NCBI GenBank assembly: GCA_003345555.1
Contig: PRDJ01000039.1
Coordinates: 1-32,000 of the forward strand
Direction: 5' to 3'
From: Candidatus Thorarchaeota archaeon
GTDB lineage: Archaea > Asgardarchaeota > Thorarchaeia > Thorarchaeales > Thorarchaeaceae
Length of the DNA stretch: 32,000 nt
Part shown: one piece after another, positions 14,738 to 22,041 of the stretch
How positions within the stretch are numbered: position 1 is the stretch's first letter
How the letters are laid out: every line of letters begins with the position of its first letter
The notes under the pieces: model-generated
What the model was told of the DNA's origin: nothing
Databases searched by the model: none
Seen by the model: the letters and a program-made list of their open reading frames with translations, nothing else
Translations under genes and position numbers: made by a program

Positions 14738-14797
14738 CCGCTATTCTTATGAACCGTGTGGGGTCACGTCGGAGTCAGCAAGGCTTGGGAGAACCGA

Positions 14798-15589
14798 TTG
14801 TTGCATAAGATATGCTTGACGAACGACGATGGTCCAGCGAGTCCCGGGCTGTTGAGTCTTGCAGAGCATCTGAAAGATACCGCAGACCTGATTGTTGTCG
14901 TGCCCGACGGGCAAAGAAGCGCCTCCGGGAAGGGACAGACGCTGAATCGTCCGCTAAGAGTGACTCATGATGCCAACGCTATTGGCTACAGAATGATTAC
15001 CCACGATGGTCTGCCTGCCGACTCCGTGGTCATGGCTCAGCACTTCGCTAAGAATCTCGATCTCTTCGTGTCGGGCATAAACGCCGGTGCAAATGCGGGA
15101 TATCAAAGCATTCTCACAAGTGGCACAGTGGGAGCAGCAATCGAAGCCGCTCTGAGGGGTTATCCGGCTGTCGCGATATCCATGGAGGTCTCCTCCGACA
15201 ATTGGTTCTCGCAATCTGGAAAGGACACGGATTTTCATGTGATTTGTGAGATGGCAACACGCATCATCAATCGGATTCTTGAAACGGGCATGCCAAGAAA
15301 CACAAGTGTACTGAACCTGAACTTTCCGCGCGAAATCACCGACAGGACGCGGGTAGTCGTGACAAGACCAGCGAAAGCTCGGTTGAAGGACGAAATCGAA
15401 CGTAGGATTGACCCGAATGGTAGTCCCTACTACTGGGTTCGCGGTGTCGAAATCACTCCCCCAAAGGACACGGACGTTTATGAGGTCTTGACAAGAGGCA
15501 ACATTTCTCTCTCTCCGATTACCATCGAGGGCGTGACCGACGCCGAGCTCGACGCTGTGAGGGACTTCGTAAGGTCTCTATCTTTGTGA
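14798..15589 (+). CDS. surE: 5'/3'-nucleotidase SurE
   Basis: LTNDDG, QRSASG, GLPADSV, SGINAGAN, SGTVGAAIEA, PYYW. Start probably TTG 14798 or 14801 after GGGAG. Confidence 0.92.
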   Translation: MLHKICLTNDDGPASPGLLSLAEHLKDTADLIVVVPDGQRSASGKGQTLNRPLRVTHDANAIGYRMITHDGLPADSVVMAQHFAKNLDLFVSGINAGANAGYQSILTSGTVGAAIEAALRGYPAVAISMEVSSDNWFSQSGKDTDFHVICEMATRIINRILETGMPRNTSVLNLNFPREITDRTRVVVTRPAKARLKDEIERRIDPNGSPYYWVRGVEITPPKDTDVYEVLTRGNISLSPITIEGVTDAELDAVRDFVRSLSL

Positions 15590-16577
15590 GGGCGCCCCAT
15601 AGTGCGTCTGTGATAGGTCGGGGAAGAGTGCTTCTGCTTTTTCCCGATACGACCTCGCGCTTGCTCCGATCTTGGACTATGGTGCCTATGACTCTTGCCT
15701 CGATCCCATCTTTCTTGATTCTTCCGATGACTTCGTCAGCATGATTTGCATTGCAGGTCACAATCATACATCCGCTACTGATGAGTTCGAGCGGGTTTAT
15801 GTCGAGTTCGCGGCAGATCGATGCCGTTGAAGGATGAATGGGCACAGCATCGAGGTCCATCTCAAATCCAACATCGCTTGCATCACATACCTCATGTACG
15901 CCCCCAGCAAGACCTCCTTCCGTGGGATCGTGCATTGCAGTCACATAACCGGTCTTGAAGGCGGCCAGGCCTTCTCTGACTACGCTGATTTCATTTCGGA
16001 GGCGGCGTGCCTCACCAAGCATGGGCTGGCCGATTGCACCAGAGAGAACTTCTGCCCCTTCTGCCGCGAGGATAGCTGTCCCTTCAAGGCCTACGGTCTT
16101 AGTAATGATGATTGAGTCGCCGGGTTGTGCGCCAGAAGAGGTCACGTATTGTCCTTCACGCGTGATTCCCAGCATGAACCCTGCTACTATCGGCCTATCT
16201 GTGCCTCCGGTTACCTCCGTATGTCCCCCCGCTACTGCTATTCCCAGCGACTTAGAAGCATCATCAATCTGTTCCATGATTGGGCCAATGTCCACTTCGG
16301 CGCTGCCGCTTGGCAGCATTATCGATGCAAAGAACCATCTCGGAGCAACTCCAAAGGTTGCTATGTCGTTGGCATTAACATGGACCGAGAGCCAACCAAC
16401 GTCCTCAATAGAGCCAGTTATTGGATCCGTGGAGGCAACGAGGATACTCTCTCCAATTCTGATTAGTGCGGCATCTCGACCAGTGCCGGGGCCGAGCACC
16501 AAGTCGGGGTCCTTCCTGCCCAATCTTGTAAAAACAAGACTCTCTAGCACATCCGTGGGGAGTTTTCCGTGAAGCAC
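15519..16577 (-). CDS. AIR synthase-related (PurM/HypE/ThiL superfamily) protein
   Basis: GPGTGRDAA, STDPI, NANDIA, GGHTE, MHDPTEGGL motifs. Specific reaction not assignable. Confidence 0.85.
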   Translation of the reverse strand: MLHGKLPTDVLESLVFTRLGRKDPDLVLGPGTGRDAALIRIGESILVASTDPITGSIEDVGWLSVHVNANDIATFGVAPRWFFASIMLPSGSAEVDIGPIMEQIDDASKSLGIAVAGGHTEVTGGTDRPIVAGFMLGITREGQYVTSSGAQPGDSIIITKTVGLEGTAILAAEGAEVLSGAIGQPMLGEARRLRNEISVVREGLAAFKTGYVTAMHDPTEGGLAGGVHEVCDASDVGFEMDLDAVPIHPSTASICRELDINPLELISSGCMIVTCNANHADEVIGRIKKDGIEARVIGTIVQDRSKREVVSGKSRSTLPRPITDALWGALTKIETLRSPSQRRARRRSRPRW

Positions 16578-16772: not shown

Positions 16773-18203
16773 CTACTTGGCTACGTACGTTTCGGCTCTT
16801 CTCAGGTTCTGCGTGTTGTGCCTGTTCTGAGGTTGAGTTCCCTTTAGCATGAAACCTAGAGCTGAACGCTGCGCGAGAATCTCGCCTGAAAGGAACGCCT
16901 TACCACCACTTGCTCTTGCCACAAGAAAGGCACCAAACGATTTTCGGAACTCAGGAATACTGATGACAGTCTCTATGGAATCCTGAAAGCCTTCCTTTTT
17001 AGCCCTCAGCAACACTGCCAGTTCCATTGCATCGTGGTACGGCCTCTTGAGGAGCTTCGACCACTTTGACTGTTCGGCGTCAACGTTTACTGCTGCCAAT
17101 CGCACTCTCTGAGTTCTAAGCAATCTCGCGGCCCTTACGATATCGTGTACCGGAGAATAAGTGACATCCTCATGGTGTAAGGACGCGACCAATGGTATGT
17201 TGGGTGAGAAGTCCGAGACCATGATGATGAGAGACTCACCATTGCCTGCTCTAATGCGTTCTCGTCGTACTGTCTCCAAAGCCTTTGCCAGTCCGTCTGC
17301 CAGTGGTGTGAGACCAGAGATTCTGAGGCAAGCGAGAGCTCTGAATATCCTGTTCCAGTTTGAGGTCGGTGTCTGAACTTGGACTGCGCCGCTGTCCTTG
17401 AAGGCGACTATTCCAATCCTATCTTTCGAACCTCTCGTTTCCTGTTCGATTTTCTCCACGAGCCTGCGCACTTCATTCATGCTGCCTTTCATTGACAGAC
17501 TTGCATCAATGACAAGAATGATTGTAAGGGGAGCTCTTTGAGACAGAACCTTCTCTCGCAAATCCTCATCGCATATCTTCAGTCTCTCATGTCCTCTCGT
17601 CTTGCCCGTTCTGAGCGCGGCGGCAACAATGGTAGATCTAATGCTTGGCGTGGACACTTCACCATGAGGCATTCTTGCACGAACGAATCTGCCTGTTTGC
17701 CTGCTTTCCGACGCCTTGAGCGAACCCATGGCTCTAGAACTCACTCGCTTTCGGCACCAATTGCCTGATGACACGCTTGAACGCATCATCCCATGGGAGT
17801 GAAGCCGTTCTGGGTCGAAGAGGTTCTCGCCACTGGCTATGTCTGGGGGTTTCATGAAAAAACTCATATCGAGTCCGGTTGGACTGCTTCTGATGTCTGA
17901 CTTGGGACCGGTGATCTTTGGAGGCACCGTTGGTGTGTACGGGTGTGTTGCTTCTCCCCACTCGTCGCCTTGATCCGGCGTCGCGCCTTGGGGCTCCACA
18001 ACGTCAATTCCTGCCGCTGGTCCGCTCTCTCGTCTCATCATTCCCCTCAGCCAAGCACGAACGAGATAGTAGGCGCATGGGATGTACACGATGGTGTCTA
18101 GTGCCAGTACAAAGGGGCTCGGAAATGTGGCAGGGTTCAGGCCGTATATGAGGTTAATGGGACTGAAGAATATCCAGGCAAAATAAGTGAAGCCCACCAC
18201 CAT
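16773..18203 (-). CDS. ChlD-type vWA (integrin-I) domain ORF with an N-terminal TM hairpin; probably the 3' part of a frameshift fusion with the upstream AAA+ ORF
   Basis: ChlD-like GRFVRARMP..STIVAAALR..DLREKV; MIDAS DASLS, T (GLTPL), D (VSDF). The frame is open upstream of ATG 18203 through the A9 run to a TGA near 18338. Confidence 0.85.
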   Translation of the reverse strand: MVVGFTYFAWIFFSPINLIYGLNPATFPSPFVLALDTIVYIPCAYYLVRAWLRGMMRRESGPAAGIDVVEPQGATPDQGDEWGEATHPYTPTVPPKITGPKSDIRSSPTGLDMSFFMKPPDIASGENLFDPERLHSHGMMRSSVSSGNWCRKRVSSRAMGSLKASESRQTGRFVRARMPHGEVSTPSIRSTIVAAALRTGKTRGHERLKICDEDLREKVLSQRAPLTIILVIDASLSMKGSMNEVRRLVEKIEQETRGSKDRIGIVAFKDSGAVQVQTPTSNWNRIFRALACLRISGLTPLADGLAKALETVRRERIRAGNGESLIIMVSDFSPNIPLVASLHHEDVTYSPVHDIVRAARLLRTQRVRLAAVNVDAEQSKWSKLLKRPYHDAMELAVLLRAKKEGFQDSIETVISIPEFRKSFGAFLVARASGGKAFLSGEILAQRSALGFMLKGTQPQNRHNTQNLRRAETYVAK

Positions 18204-18250
18204 TATGACCGCACAAATGGTTCCCCTTATTGGGTCACCACGGGGTCTCC

Positions 18251-19444
18251 TTATCCCTTGTTTAGCTTTTTTTTTACGTCTGTTGCCCCGGCTTCTGCCG
18301 TTCTCTGCTGGCGGCCGAACACTCCTCCTGTGCGTCGTTCAGTCTGCTTCTCTGGCGTAGGAGGAACCTCTGTAGGCGATTGTCGACGATCTCGCTTTCG
18401 GACGACTTCCTCAGCCTTGACAATCGCAGTATCAATTTCATCCGCCGAAGGAGGCTCCAGCAATCCACCTCTCCTTGTTCGGTGGCTCAGTGCCAGCTGC
18501 GCAGCAAGCTTCATGTCCTCGAGAGTCACTTCCTTGCGACCCTCCAATGCAGCGTTAGCTAAGGCTGTCTTGCTGATGATGATGTCCGGTCTTACGCCAT
18601 CAACTTCGAGTGCATCACATGCCATGGCTATAGCTCTCAGCCTCGACTCGGGAAGCACAACATCTTGGAGTATCTCCTTCGCATGAACGACTTTCCGCTT
18701 CAAACTGGATTGACGTTCTGACCATTCATCCTTGAATTGCTTTGGATTTCTTTCGAAGGCCAGATTCCGTTTGACGAGCTCCATTCGATCCTCGACGCTC
18801 AAACCGCCGCCAACGGCAACGTGAAGTGGAAACCTATCTAACAGCTGGGGTCTCAGTTCTCCTTCTTCCGGGTTCATGGTTCCCACCAGAACGAAGTCAG
18901 ACGGATGGACGAATGATATGCCCTCTCTCTCAATCACATTGACTTTGGTTGCTGCCGCGTCAAGCAAGTCATCAACCAAGTGGTCTGGCAAAAGGTTCAC
19001 TTCGTCGACGTAGAGGATATTCTGGTTTGCTTCGGCCAAGATTCCGGGCCTGAGTGCTTGAACGCCCTCCTTCAATACACGCTCTATGTCAAGAGATCCG
19101 ATAAGTCGGTCTTCAGTTGTCGAAAGTGGAAGATTGACTACGCGCATCTTCCGCCGCAGCAATCTGAGTTCCTGTCCCTCCTCATGCCGTCCCCGACAAT
19201 CCGGACAAAGTGAATCGCCCGCCGGATCGCATCCGAAGACACAACCCTCCACAATGGTGACTTCCGGCAGGAGGTCTGCAAGCGCCCTGACCGCAGTTGT
19301 CTTGCCAGTTCCTTTCGGGCCTGATATCAGGACGCCGCCGATTCTCGGGCTCACACCATTGAGAATGAGAGCAAGCTTCAGCTTCTCTAATCCAACGAGG
19401 GCGGCGAATGGCATCACAGACCGTTCAAGTTCGGTCAAGGACAC
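18251..19444 (-). CDS. chlI: Magnesium/cobalt chelatase ChlI-like AAA+ ATPase
   Basis: PFAALVG, Walker [23 protein letters not shown], Walker [31 protein letters not shown] start. Confidence 0.88.
18266..18275 (-). other. Candidate -1 programmed frameshift or transcriptional slippage site (A9G; heptamers A_AAA_AAA and A_AAA_AAG)
   Basis: Minus strand reads GAC GTA AAA AAA AAG CTA AAC AAG GGA TAA. The -1 frame reads AAA GCT AAA CAA GGG ATA...GTC ATA ATG into the vWA ORF with no stop. Confidence 0.75.
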
Positions 19445-21357: not shown

Positions 21358-22017
21358 CTACTTCTCTGCCTCTCGCTCTTTCTCCTCACGTGCCTCTCGT
21401 TCGAGATCTGCCAGAAGGTCGTCAATCCTTTTCTCTTCGGTGCGAGGTTTGCGGCCAGATTCTTTCTGCTTCTGCTTAGCGAGCGGCGGCAAGACCTTCT
21501 CCTTTTCCAGCATGATTTCTGCCTCCATGGCCTCTAGCTCCTGATTGATTCTCTTTTCCATCTCGACTGTGGTTCCACTCGTGGAGAGGTCTTCAGAGAG
21601 CAGTTCGCCTGCCTCAGATATTTGTTCGAACGATTGTGTGAGTTTATCCAGCTGCATCTGTATCTCAACCGGGCTGAGCATGGCCTGCGCTTTTGAGAGT
21701 GCATCATTCGCTATCTTGAACGCTCCCAAGACATCAGTCTGGTCTTTTGCCTCCTCGATGTTCATGAGCGCTGTCTCAAGCGTGAGGAATTGCTGACGAT
21801 ATCTGGCCCTGCGGTTGTCCAAATCAAGCATGATTGACAGGTGCGACCGGGCCAACGACTTTTCACCCCCGGCCATAGCCTCTTTCGCAGATTTTCGCTC
21901 TTCCTGCATTCGCGTTTCGAGCCTGCGAGTCCTAAGGGTCAGGGCATTCATGGTTCCTTTGATTTCGAGGATTCCTCGTTCGGTGTCCACTTTTTTCTTG
22001 CCGCTCAGAAAGCCCAT
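21358..22017 (-). CDS. ESCRT-III protein, Snf7 (Vps20/32/60-type) family
   Basis: MGFLSGKKK start, long basic helical hairpin, LETALMNIEEAKDQTDVLGAFKIANDAL core, acidic C-terminal half, IDDLLADLE tail. Start at ATG 22017. Confidence 0.8.
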   Translation of the reverse strand: MGFLSGKKKVDTERGILEIKGTMNALTLRTRRLETRMQEERKSAKEAMAGGEKSLARSHLSIMLDLDNRRARYRQQFLTLETALMNIEEAKDQTDVLGAFKIANDALSKAQAMLSPVEIQMQLDKLTQSFEQISEAGELLSEDLSTSGTTVEMEKRINQELEAMEAEIMLEKEKVLPPLAKQKQKESGRKPRTEEKRIDDLLADLEREAREEKEREAEK

Positions 22018-22041
22018 TGCGTGCACCGTTCCTATCGTAAC

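Follow-up and report, generated by a model that had tools for sequence, protein, structure and literature searches.

A poly-A slip site in a Thorarchaeota chlD-type gene probably couples a short ChlI-like ATPase to a predicted membrane-anchored ATPase-vWA protein

Introduction

Do the two ORFs at 16773..19444 of this Thorarchaeota contig represent two genes or one, and if one, how is its second half read? The first is a ChlI-type AAA+ ATPase ORF that ends just past a run of nine A's. The second lies in the -1 frame relative to it and is listed separately in databases as 'VWA domain-containing protein'. A preliminary description of the window, the whole stretch of 32,000 nucleotides analysed here, had proposed that one gene gives ChlI-like and ChlD-like products via a -1 shift at the A-run, and had guessed the source to be a probable Asgard archaeon. 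The guess was right, the organism being a member of the Thorarchaeota, and the one-gene proposal is now supported by orthologues and by selection on the junction codons. The same description had mentioned earlier reports of programmed frameshifting in chlD genes; these are indeed published, archaeal genes included (PMC3711429, PMC9227772). We consider it very likely that the locus is one chlD-type gene in which a selected A9 run leads to a short product and a shifted product of ~890 aa. What is new is the lineage and the protein architecture; the mechanism has already been published for chlD genes.

Results

One profile model spans two reading frames

ORF1 (18251..19444, minus strand, as are the other features of the locus) encodes a ChlI-type AAA+ ATPase of 397 aa, which is the short product obtained by standard decoding. 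It matched TIGR02030 (BchI-ChlI) with an E-value of 1e-114 over model positions 2-332 of 337, as well as PF07728, PF17863 and PF01078. Both its Walker A (GPKGTGKT, 19298-19321) and Walker B (LYVDEVN, 18995-19015) motifs are intact. ORF2 (16773..18203, 476 aa, -1 frame relative to ORF1) comprises a predicted transmembrane hairpin followed by a ChlD-type linker and a vWA domain, whose MIDAS motif (DxSxS, here DASLS, 17493-17507) is intact. It matched PF13519 and PF00092, and its sole PDB sequence match was the BchD I-domain (2x31). The 641-position model TIGR02442 was split over both ORFs, with positions 2-343 in ORF1 and 403-619 in ORF2. Because this one model spans both halves, ORF1 and ORF2 are best read as one gene, and the HMM matches settle the domain architecture. 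Downstream of the gene lies an AIR-synthase-family gene (HypE/ThiL-like, below all cut-offs), and a divergent neighbour encodes threonine synthase. Both neighbours are syntenic across the host family and not beyond it, and we draw no functional inference from them.

Re-reading of the junction confirmed the end of ORF1, the A9G run, the stop 12 nt further on and the -1 frame that continues into the vWA ORF. The slip site is an A9 run (T9 on the plus strand) at 18267..18275, read in frame 0 as GTA AAA AAA AAG and followed by a G at 18266. The frame-0 tail 3′ of the run (18251..18266) consists of that G of AAG, the codons CTA AAC AAG GGA and the TAA stop (18253..18251, 12 nt past A9G), and the short product ends in ...KKKLNKG. 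The -1 frame has no stops from 18338 through the run to ATG 18203 of ORF2; the part of it that lies 5′ of the run (18276..18338) is also open in the host genome, an openness that is not conserved. Between the run and the ATG are 21 junction codons (18204..18266) that can be translated in the -1 frame solely after a shift and that encode a basic patch and then the beginning of predicted transmembrane helix 1. Hydropathy predicts a membrane hairpin (18060..18218) directly after the slip site, with two hydrophobic helices, ICAVIMVVGFTYFAWIFF and FVLALDTIVYIPCAYYLV, and basic flanks. Helix 1 begins 5 codons 5′ of ATG 18203. The long product of a -1 shift would measure ~890 aa.

The homopolymer and the -1 arrangement are conserved in the host family

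We surveyed 64 species genomes of the host family. Aligning the orthologues, a check proposed in the preliminary description, revealed that the run, the -1 junction and a nearby frame-0 stop are kept in 57 of the 64, and these 57 genomes belong to 15 genera. In 53 of the 57, the frame-0 stop lies 0-13 nt past the run. A run of 8-11 A's is present in 63 of the 64 genomes, with A9 in 46, A10 in 12 and A11 in 4 (62/64). The run occurs in codon phases 0, 1 and 2 among the relatives, and the wobble base of the codon before it is A in all phase-2 cases. Such conservation of homopolymer length irrespective of phase (A8 or more, 63/64) is as expected for programmed transcriptional realignment. The A_AAA_AAG slippery heptamer emphasised in the preliminary description is present in the window, but most relatives have C rather than G as the next base after A9. 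These comparisons suggest that what is conserved is an A9-A11 homopolymer, whichever its codon phase, and not the A_AAA_AAG heptamer.

Although the heptamer with its final G is not conserved, an in-phase heptamer of the general form X_XXY_YYZ is present in every -1 allele. The genome G052 has lost the long run and retains an in-phase A_AAA_AAA heptamer alone, directly before the stop; in G012, a heptamer of the A_AAA_AAA type sits next to the stop in addition to an A9 run. In 10 relatives the -1 frame is closed by a TAA that shares its end with the run's first A's, and the shift must therefore take place in the run. Some A10 and A11 alleles still hold the -1 frame, which indicates that the frame relation is maintained and not merely the number of A's. 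From this comparative evidence, recoding at the A-run is highly probable.

The run and the junction codons are under selection

The host assembly (2.28 Mb, 51% GC) contains 3 A/T runs of at least 8, compared to ~44 expected from its composition, a ~15-fold depletion. Only 2 runs in the assembly reach a length of at least 9; the slip-site run is one of them, and no other run of 9 falls inside long ORFs. Of the two Lys codons, AAA is the less used (33-37%). Since homopolymers of at least 8 are depleted genome-wide and AAA is the minority Lys codon, we conclude that the A9 run is selected, beyond chance. Aragorn found no tRNA-Lys in the host MAG, in which it found 15-17 tRNAs in all.

To the 3′ side of the run, the 16 codons between the frame-0 stop and the annotated ATG showed a pN/pS of 0.20 in the -1 frame and of 1.6-1.9 in the other frames. 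Entropy by codon position across the junction was 0.55/0.30/1.53, highest at the third position. These values suggest that the junction codons 5′ of Met 18203 are under purifying selection in the -1 frame. No ATG, GTG or TTG lies 5′ of the annotated ATG in 17 of 21 split loci. A Met at or beside the annotated ORF2 start is conserved in the host family, so a vWA-only protein may to some extent be initiated independently; inspection by eye showed no suitably spaced SD-like sequence ahead of ATG 18203.

The run probably arose from a fused ancestor

Seven of the 64 host-family genomes deviate from the -1 arrangement, five being fused and two having ORF2 in the +1 frame. This suggests either that the configuration is not absolutely required or that some MAGs contain homopolymer errors. 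The fused and +1 alleles differ from those of their congeners by plus or minus one A, and they retain the short-product tail and its stop in a neighbouring frame. On the tree, fused alleles originated independently at least 4 times and +1 alleles at least twice, at shallow tips only. The -1 state persists along branches of 0.3-0.8 substitutions per site, and 57 of the 59 shifted alleles are in the -1 direction. Fused and +1 alleles are thus short-lived. One fused allele is common to two species (G080 and G092) and to two JGI samples, which identifies it as real DNA.

In-frame fusions were found in the five host-family genomes, in JGI P0152 and throughout the sister family, where all 19 genomes (one with the gene cut by a contig end) have the fusion and no run at that position. 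G204 was considered as a split form in the sister family and rejected, the gene being merely cut by the contig end. Fused homologues of 856-913 aa in the sister family and in other Asgard families have the same hydrophobic hairpin, which is conserved in the host family and in the fused Asgard homologues L026, L027, L030 and G203. Because the sister family is uniformly fused without a run, the host-family run appears to have arisen independently from a fused ancestor.

Assembly error, separate genes and phase variation

Homopolymers are error-prone, and fused A10/A11 alleles do occur in 5 of the 64 relatives and in JGI contigs, so the true gene could be an A10 allele encoding a plain in-frame fusion. 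We regard this as extremely improbable. The -1 state recurs in 57 independently assembled genomes from 15 genera, and in the A10 and A11 alleles that hold the -1 frame it is the frame relation that has been maintained. An identity look-up, which is blind to A10 alleles, located the exact A9-dependent ORF1 product of 397 aa on 7 contigs; these come from at least 3 independent public assemblies, and this recurrence makes an assembly error in the host species unlikely. Among proteins of >833 aa there was no fused protein near the host species, compared to at least 167 split clusters. The same split could also reflect two independent genes, the vWA gene having initiated at ATG 18203 since an ancient frameshift mutation and any shift product being unimportant. 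Gene callers and NCBI annotate two genes, many organisms have separate genes for ChlI and ChlD-like proteins, and the Met at or beside the ATG 18203 position is conserved. Two independent genes are nevertheless highly unlikely, given that the 16 codons 5′ of the ATG, past the ORF1 stop and lacking a start codon, are subject to strong purifying selection in the frame of ORF2, that transmembrane helix 1 starts 5′ of the ATG and that no SD-like sequence was seen by eye at a usable distance from it. Persistence of the A-run, in a genome that avoids such runs and prefers the other Lys codon, would also be left unexplained. Finally, replication slippage could toggle A9 and A10 in populations and so switch the long protein off and on at the DNA level. 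On the tree, the one-A fused and +1 alleles have at least 6 origins, and the allele common to G080, G092 and two JGI samples is real DNA. Against such phase variation, the deviants are rare (7/64 genomes, 1 of ~168 protein clusters) and shallow only, the -1 state is stable over 0.3-0.8 substitutions per site, and 'off' would be the norm; we judge this explanation very unlikely as well.

Polymerase or ribosomal slippage

In the proposed mechanism, standard decoding would halt 4 codons past the run and yield a soluble 397-aa ChlI-like AAA+ ATPase. A shift on the run to the -1 frame, through an extra A added by RNA polymerase or through a ribosomal -1 slip, would yield a long protein in which the same AAA+ module is followed by the basic patch, the two-helix membrane hairpin, the ChlD linker and the vWA/MIDAS domain. 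If BchI/BchD is a guide, the two forms may assemble as a mixed membrane-tethered AAA+ complex, and the slip frequency would set the short:long ratio.

The preliminary description had named a GGGG 10 nt 5′ of the run and weak downstream hairpins as candidate helpers. The GGGG is present, but it was found in the two closest genomes only and is not conserved. The hairpins exist as sequence, but they are not conserved and fold no more stably than shuffles (z -0.38). No covariation was detected for the proposed downstream hairpin, which starts ~25 nt past the run, too far for a stimulator, and whose pairing was possible in 72% of cells compared to 70% in shuffles. RNAalifold gave no consensus RNA structure for 22 junctions, and the junction flanks were no more stable than shuffled sequences (z -0.38 and -0.02). 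With no conserved or stable structure, the hairpins were rejected as frameshift stimulators, and no SD-like stimulator is conserved either.

We lean towards RNA-polymerase slippage as the main route, a judgement we hold with even confidence. It is favoured because at least nine A's are kept whatever the codon phase, because the wobble base before phase-2 runs is always A and because neither a conserved or stable RNA structure nor a conserved SD-like motif was found. It is also favoured because longer runs gave higher efficiency when chlD cassettes were assayed in E. coli reporters, with published values of 10, 40 and 63% for 7, 9 and 11 A's (PMC3711429), and because Thermus dnaX, as cited in that paper, uses A9 transcriptionally. 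Against a polymerase route, 57 of the 59 shifted alleles are -1, and a constant shift direction was taken by Antonov et al. as a sign of ribosomal frameshifting (PMC3711429); moreover, the A_AAA_AAA of G052 is a typical site for ribosomal frameshifting and a short one for a slipping polymerase. Ribosomal -1 frameshifting as the main route is possible, though it falls short of an even chance. A purely ribosomal -1 frameshift on a dnaX-type A_AAA_AAG, with help from a G-rich SD-like element before it and a hairpin after it, is an equally tentative proposition. It would fit the in-phase heptamer of every -1 allele, the near-constant direction of the shift, and the presence of only an A7 heptamer beside the stop in G052 and of a heptamer plus A9 in G012. 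It also has an archaeal precedent in Saccharolobus fucA1, where -1 frameshifting occurs on A_AAA_AAT (reviewed in PMC8211752). It fits poorly with the base after the run, which is mostly C following A9 and not a conserved G, with the retention of at least nine A's in all three phases though seven would do, and with the results on structure and GGGG given above. A comparable contribution of polymerase and ribosome is unlikely.

Discussion

Frameshifted chlD (fs-chlD) genes were described as the 'magnesium chelatase' fs-gene cluster by Antonov 2013 (PMC3711429) and Kuznetsov 2022 (PMC9227772), and frameshifted chlD is also the subject of Antonov 2020 (MBE), as described in PMC9227772. The Thorarchaeota gene resembles them in having a ChlI-type AAA+ ORF followed by a vWA half in the -1 frame, a poly-A slip site in the linker, a short product by standard decoding and a long one by a shift, and fused orthologues. 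Archaeal examples come from Methanocaldococcus and Methanococcus, and there are 'orphan' cases with neither a large subunit nor a pathway (PMC3711429, PMC9227772). Unlike the described fs-chlD genes, the present one belongs to an Asgard lineage and would have originated independently from a fused ancestor. It also differs from those in PMC9227772 by the predicted transmembrane hairpin right after the slip site, membrane anchoring being unmentioned there, and by having no downstream structure, whereas slippery sites with downstream structures are described in that paper.

Full-length and truncated AAA+ products of one gene with an A-rich slip site, acting in one complex (here a proposed one), are also known from dnaX. 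Thermus thermophilus dnaX, cited in PMC3711429 as a case of programmed transcriptional realignment on A9, is similar in that its A9 run needs no structure. In contrast, the upstream SD and downstream hairpin of E. coli dnaX, summarised in the same paper as an A_AAA_AAG ribosomal -1 frameshift, have no conserved counterpart in Thorarchaeota. The shifted product is the long one in Thorarchaeota and the short one in dnaX.

As in BchI/BchD (ChlI/ChlD; 2x31) and CobS/CobT, an AAA+ small subunit is paired with a medium subunit of AAA+, linker and vWA/MIDAS. The ChlH/CobN large subunit (PF02514) was found in 0 of 86 host-family genomes, of which 23 have a completeness of at least 90%, by a search that was positive in 5 reference genomes. 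Classical Mg/Co chelatase function is doubtful since no large subunit was found, and the label 'chelatase subunits' used in the preliminary description is doubtful with it. Further differences from BchI/BchD, the class I Mg-chelatase subunits, are the membrane hairpin in the linker and the AAA+ module of the long form, which matches the short-form module exactly instead of being degenerate. A defence system was considered and rejected, as PADLOC gave just a weak generic AAA+ match.

We tentatively propose, with rather less than even confidence, that RNA-polymerase slippage on A9 sets the soluble versus the membrane-anchored ATPase-vWA form in Thorarchaeota, in a role which, given that the large subunit was not found, would be other than chelation. 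If true, how often slippage occurs would determine the stoichiometry in a membrane-tethered AAA+/MIDAS machine lacking a chelatase large subunit. In the literature searched, no archaeal cellular gene was reported to use programmed transcriptional realignment and no ChlD relative to be membrane-anchored, and nothing relevant turned up on Thorarchaeota chelatases or Asgard frameshifting.

With this locus the chlD recoding family gains an Asgard lineage, and recoding is linked to predicted membrane anchoring at one site. A poly-A site that was apparently acquired independently and kept across 15 genera argues that the short:long ratio is under selection. It offers a natural test case, free of helper structures, for slippage of an archaeal (Pol II-like) RNA polymerase or of the ribosome on A9. 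The role of ChlI/ChlD pairs without a large subunit is a question raised in PMC9227772, and a membrane-tethered version narrows the search for their partners. At least 167 database clusters carry the name 'VWA domain-containing protein' or 'Mg-chelatase subunit ChlD', as if they were stand-alone proteins, and among the gene calls some begin inside or past the membrane hairpin, with the result that the predicted long product and its anchor are missed.

Two halves of one chlD-type gene

ORF1 (18251–19444, minus strand; 397 aa) ends GTA AAA AAA AAG CTA AAC AAG GGA TAA, with the A9 run at 18275–18267 and the TAA stop codon at 18253–18251. The -1 frame is stop-free from 18338, across the run and into the annotated ATG (18203) of ORF2 (16773–18203, minus strand; 476 aa). 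When rechecked on the minus strand, the ORFs, run, stop and -1 frame all had the coordinates reported in the preliminary description. ORF1 matched the TIGR02030 profile (E 1e-114, model positions 2–332 of 337) and contains AAA_5, AAA_lid_2 and Mg_chelatase domains with intact Walker A and Walker B motifs, and it encodes a complete ChlI-type AAA+ ATPase. ORF2 has a ChlD-type linker followed by a vWA domain whose MIDAS motif is DASLS, and its sole match among PDB sequences was the BchD I-domain, 2x31. Since TIGR02442, a single full-length model of 641 positions, spans both ORF1 (2–343) and ORF2 (403–619), the two are halves of one chlD-type gene. The suspected Asgard origin of the DNA was borne out by an ESCRT-III/Snf7 gene inside the window and by close homologues that carry the name Candidatus Thorarchaeota. 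The Snf7 gene, a stand-alone one (21358–22026, minus strand), adjoins a phosphoserine-phosphatase-like HAD gene, a neighbourhood also kept in JGI contigs L033 and L034.

Conservation and selection at the junction

Within the taxonomic family of the source organism, we compared the junction across 64 genomes, each representing one species, from 15 genera. ORF2 was in the -1 frame relative to ORF1 in 57 genomes, in frame in five and in the +1 frame in two. The run was A9 in 46 genomes, A10 in 12, A11 in four, and A8 and A7 in one each. With a frame-0 stop 0–13 nt past the run in 53 of the 57 genomes with the -1 arrangement, the run, junction and nearby stop are kept among orthologues. Between this stop and the annotated ATG, past the end of ORF1, the -1 frame translates into a conserved peptide with the consensus (I/V)RNPRG(D/N)PIKGTICAI. 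Codon-position entropies in this stretch were 0.55, 0.30 and 1.53, and pN/pS was 0.20 compared to 1.6 and 1.9 for the same bases in the other two frames. No ATG, GTG or TTG was found upstream of the stretch in 17 of 21 split loci, and in 10 genomes a T and the run's first two A's together make a TAA that closes the -1 frame. Because a coding-like and usually start-free stretch lies past ORF1, with an upstream TAA in 10 genomes, the -1 frame can be entered only through a shift inside the run. The junction conservation and the pN/pS of 0.20 support the original proposal that -1 recoding of one gene yields ChlI-like and ChlD-like products.

The 2.28-Mb assembly has three A/T runs of at least 8, against ~44 expected; the junction run is the only run of nine within its long ORFs, and AAA is the minority Lys codon (33–37%). 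The A-run itself is under selection. The assembly has just one other A/T run of nine, a T9 at contig C75:5444–5452, where open frames do not exceed 74 codons and which is probably intergenic. An identity look-up, able to find A9 alleles only, placed the exact ORF1 product on seven contigs, which come from three or more independent assemblies, and no fused protein close to the source species was present among proteins >833 aa. The A9 state of the source species is reproducible across assemblies.

Origin of the slip site

Fused proteins with the same hydrophobic hairpin (see below) were found in 19 of 19 sister-family genomes, one being cut by a contig end. Such fused homologues, of 856–913 aa, occur in the sister family and other Asgard families, and none has an A-run at the equivalent position. 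The slip site is therefore derived within the family, independently of the Methanocaldococcus and bacterial cases. Each in-frame allele within the family (genomes G014, G077, G101 and the pair G080/G092, plus the JGI protein P0152, A11) equals its congener's run plus one A. In a tree of the flanking sequence, in-frame alleles had at least four origins and +1 alleles two, all at tips or shallow nodes, and the -1 state spanned branches of 0.3–0.8 substitutions per site. The fused alleles are real DNA, since one is common to G080 and G092, and to two JGI samples. In the neighbouring frame they retain the short-product tail with its stop, so slippage would still give both products. At locus L051 (G067), A9 is present and one base is lost just upstream (CAAGAGGC vs CAGGAAGGC in congeners), placing ORF2 in the +1 frame; this is either a real variant, which would need a different slip, or an error in the MAG.

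A predicted membrane hairpin past the slip site

A two-helix hydrophobic hairpin with basic residues on both sides is encoded at 18060–18218 (minus strand), ~15 codons past the slip site, and its helix 1 begins upstream of ATG 18203. Given this position, the short product is predicted to be a soluble AAA+ ATPase; the long product would be the same ATPase, membrane-tethered and with a MIDAS domain. The hairpin sits in the linker of the ChlD-like long product, and the same insertion is found in the 856–913-aa fused homologues of other Asgard families (L026, L027, L030, L088), L030 seemingly having four hydrophobic segments. Shorter paralogues of 640–720 aa (L028, L029, L031, L032) do not have it. 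Public gene calls for ORF2 of the source species begin 55 codons 3' of ATG 18203, and this 421-aa product is without the whole hairpin.

Mechanism of the shift

RNAalifold found no consensus structure around 22 junctions, and the window's junction flanks folded no better than shuffles. The hairpin proposed as a downstream stimulator, which starts ~25 nt past the run, was paired in 72% of cells vs 70% in shuffles, without covariation, and was not borne out. The GGGG upstream of the run lies where it had been placed, but only the two closest genomes have it. There is thus no helper element.

Either RNA-polymerase slippage or ribosomal -1 frameshifting at the run would make the long product. We give polymerase slippage roughly an even chance. 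The run keeps at least nine A's, though seven are enough for a ribosomal heptamer; it is found in all three codon phases, and wherever it is in phase 2, the codon before it (Val, Ala or Gly) invariably has A at its wobble position. By analogy, the A9 of Thermus dnaX is described as working by transcriptional slippage, and chlD cassettes in E. coli reporters gave 10, 40 and 63% at 7, 9 and 11 A's (PMC3711429). The almost constant -1 direction, which is Antonov's criterion for ribosomal frameshifting (PMC3711429), points instead to the ribosome, as does G052, which has lost the long run to decay and retains just an in-phase A_AAA_AAA heptamer right before the stop; its congener G012 carries both slip sites. 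Ribosomal frameshifting is thus a credible, if somewhat less probable, source of the shift, and a combination of both routes is unlikely. The second site reads CCA AAA AAA TAA, an in-phase A7 heptamer that directly adjoins the stop; it is present at L073 (G052) and L022 (G012) and lies 5 nt past the A9 run, which in G052 has become AAA AAG AAA. Aragorn found 15–17 tRNA genes and no tRNA-Lys in the window's own MAG (rated 93% complete); the tRNAs may have many introns or be split, or may just not have been assembled.

Relation to known chlD genes and genomic context

Publications already describe chlD genes that are frameshifted at poly-A sites, including archaeal ones from Methanocaldococcus and Methanococcus and some in genomes without the large subunit, and such genes have been tested in E. 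coli reporters (PMC3711429, PMC9227772, PMC8211752); the recoding device itself is therefore not new. What is new is the Asgard lineage, the independent origin of the slip site from a fused ancestor, the stimulator-free site and the predicted membrane hairpin right past it, of which there was no mention in PMC9227772 or in the searched literature on Thorarchaeota chelatases and Asgard frameshifting.

With positive controls, CobN/ChlH (PF02514) was found neither in the own genome (93% complete) nor in any of 86 family genomes, and there is no second ChlI gene. ORF1 and ORF2 are thus an 'orphan' ChlI/ChlD pair, which recalls stage 1 as described by Kuznetsov et al. (PMC9227772), except that it is probably membrane-bound. 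Overall, the observation in the preliminary description is confirmed and its interpretation supported, with the signal anatomy corrected and the 'chelatase subunits' label judged doubtful. The gene lies between threonine synthase on its upstream side and an AIR-synthase-family gene on its downstream side, a context syntenic inside the family only and giving no functional hint; PADLOC returned nothing. The AIR-synthase-family protein (15519–16577, minus strand; PF00586/PF02769) reached none of the cut-offs for HypE, ThiL and SelD. Its gene directly follows the chlD-like one in all family loci examined, and in the window it overlaps the convergent surE ORF (14756–15589) by ~70 nt at its 3' end.
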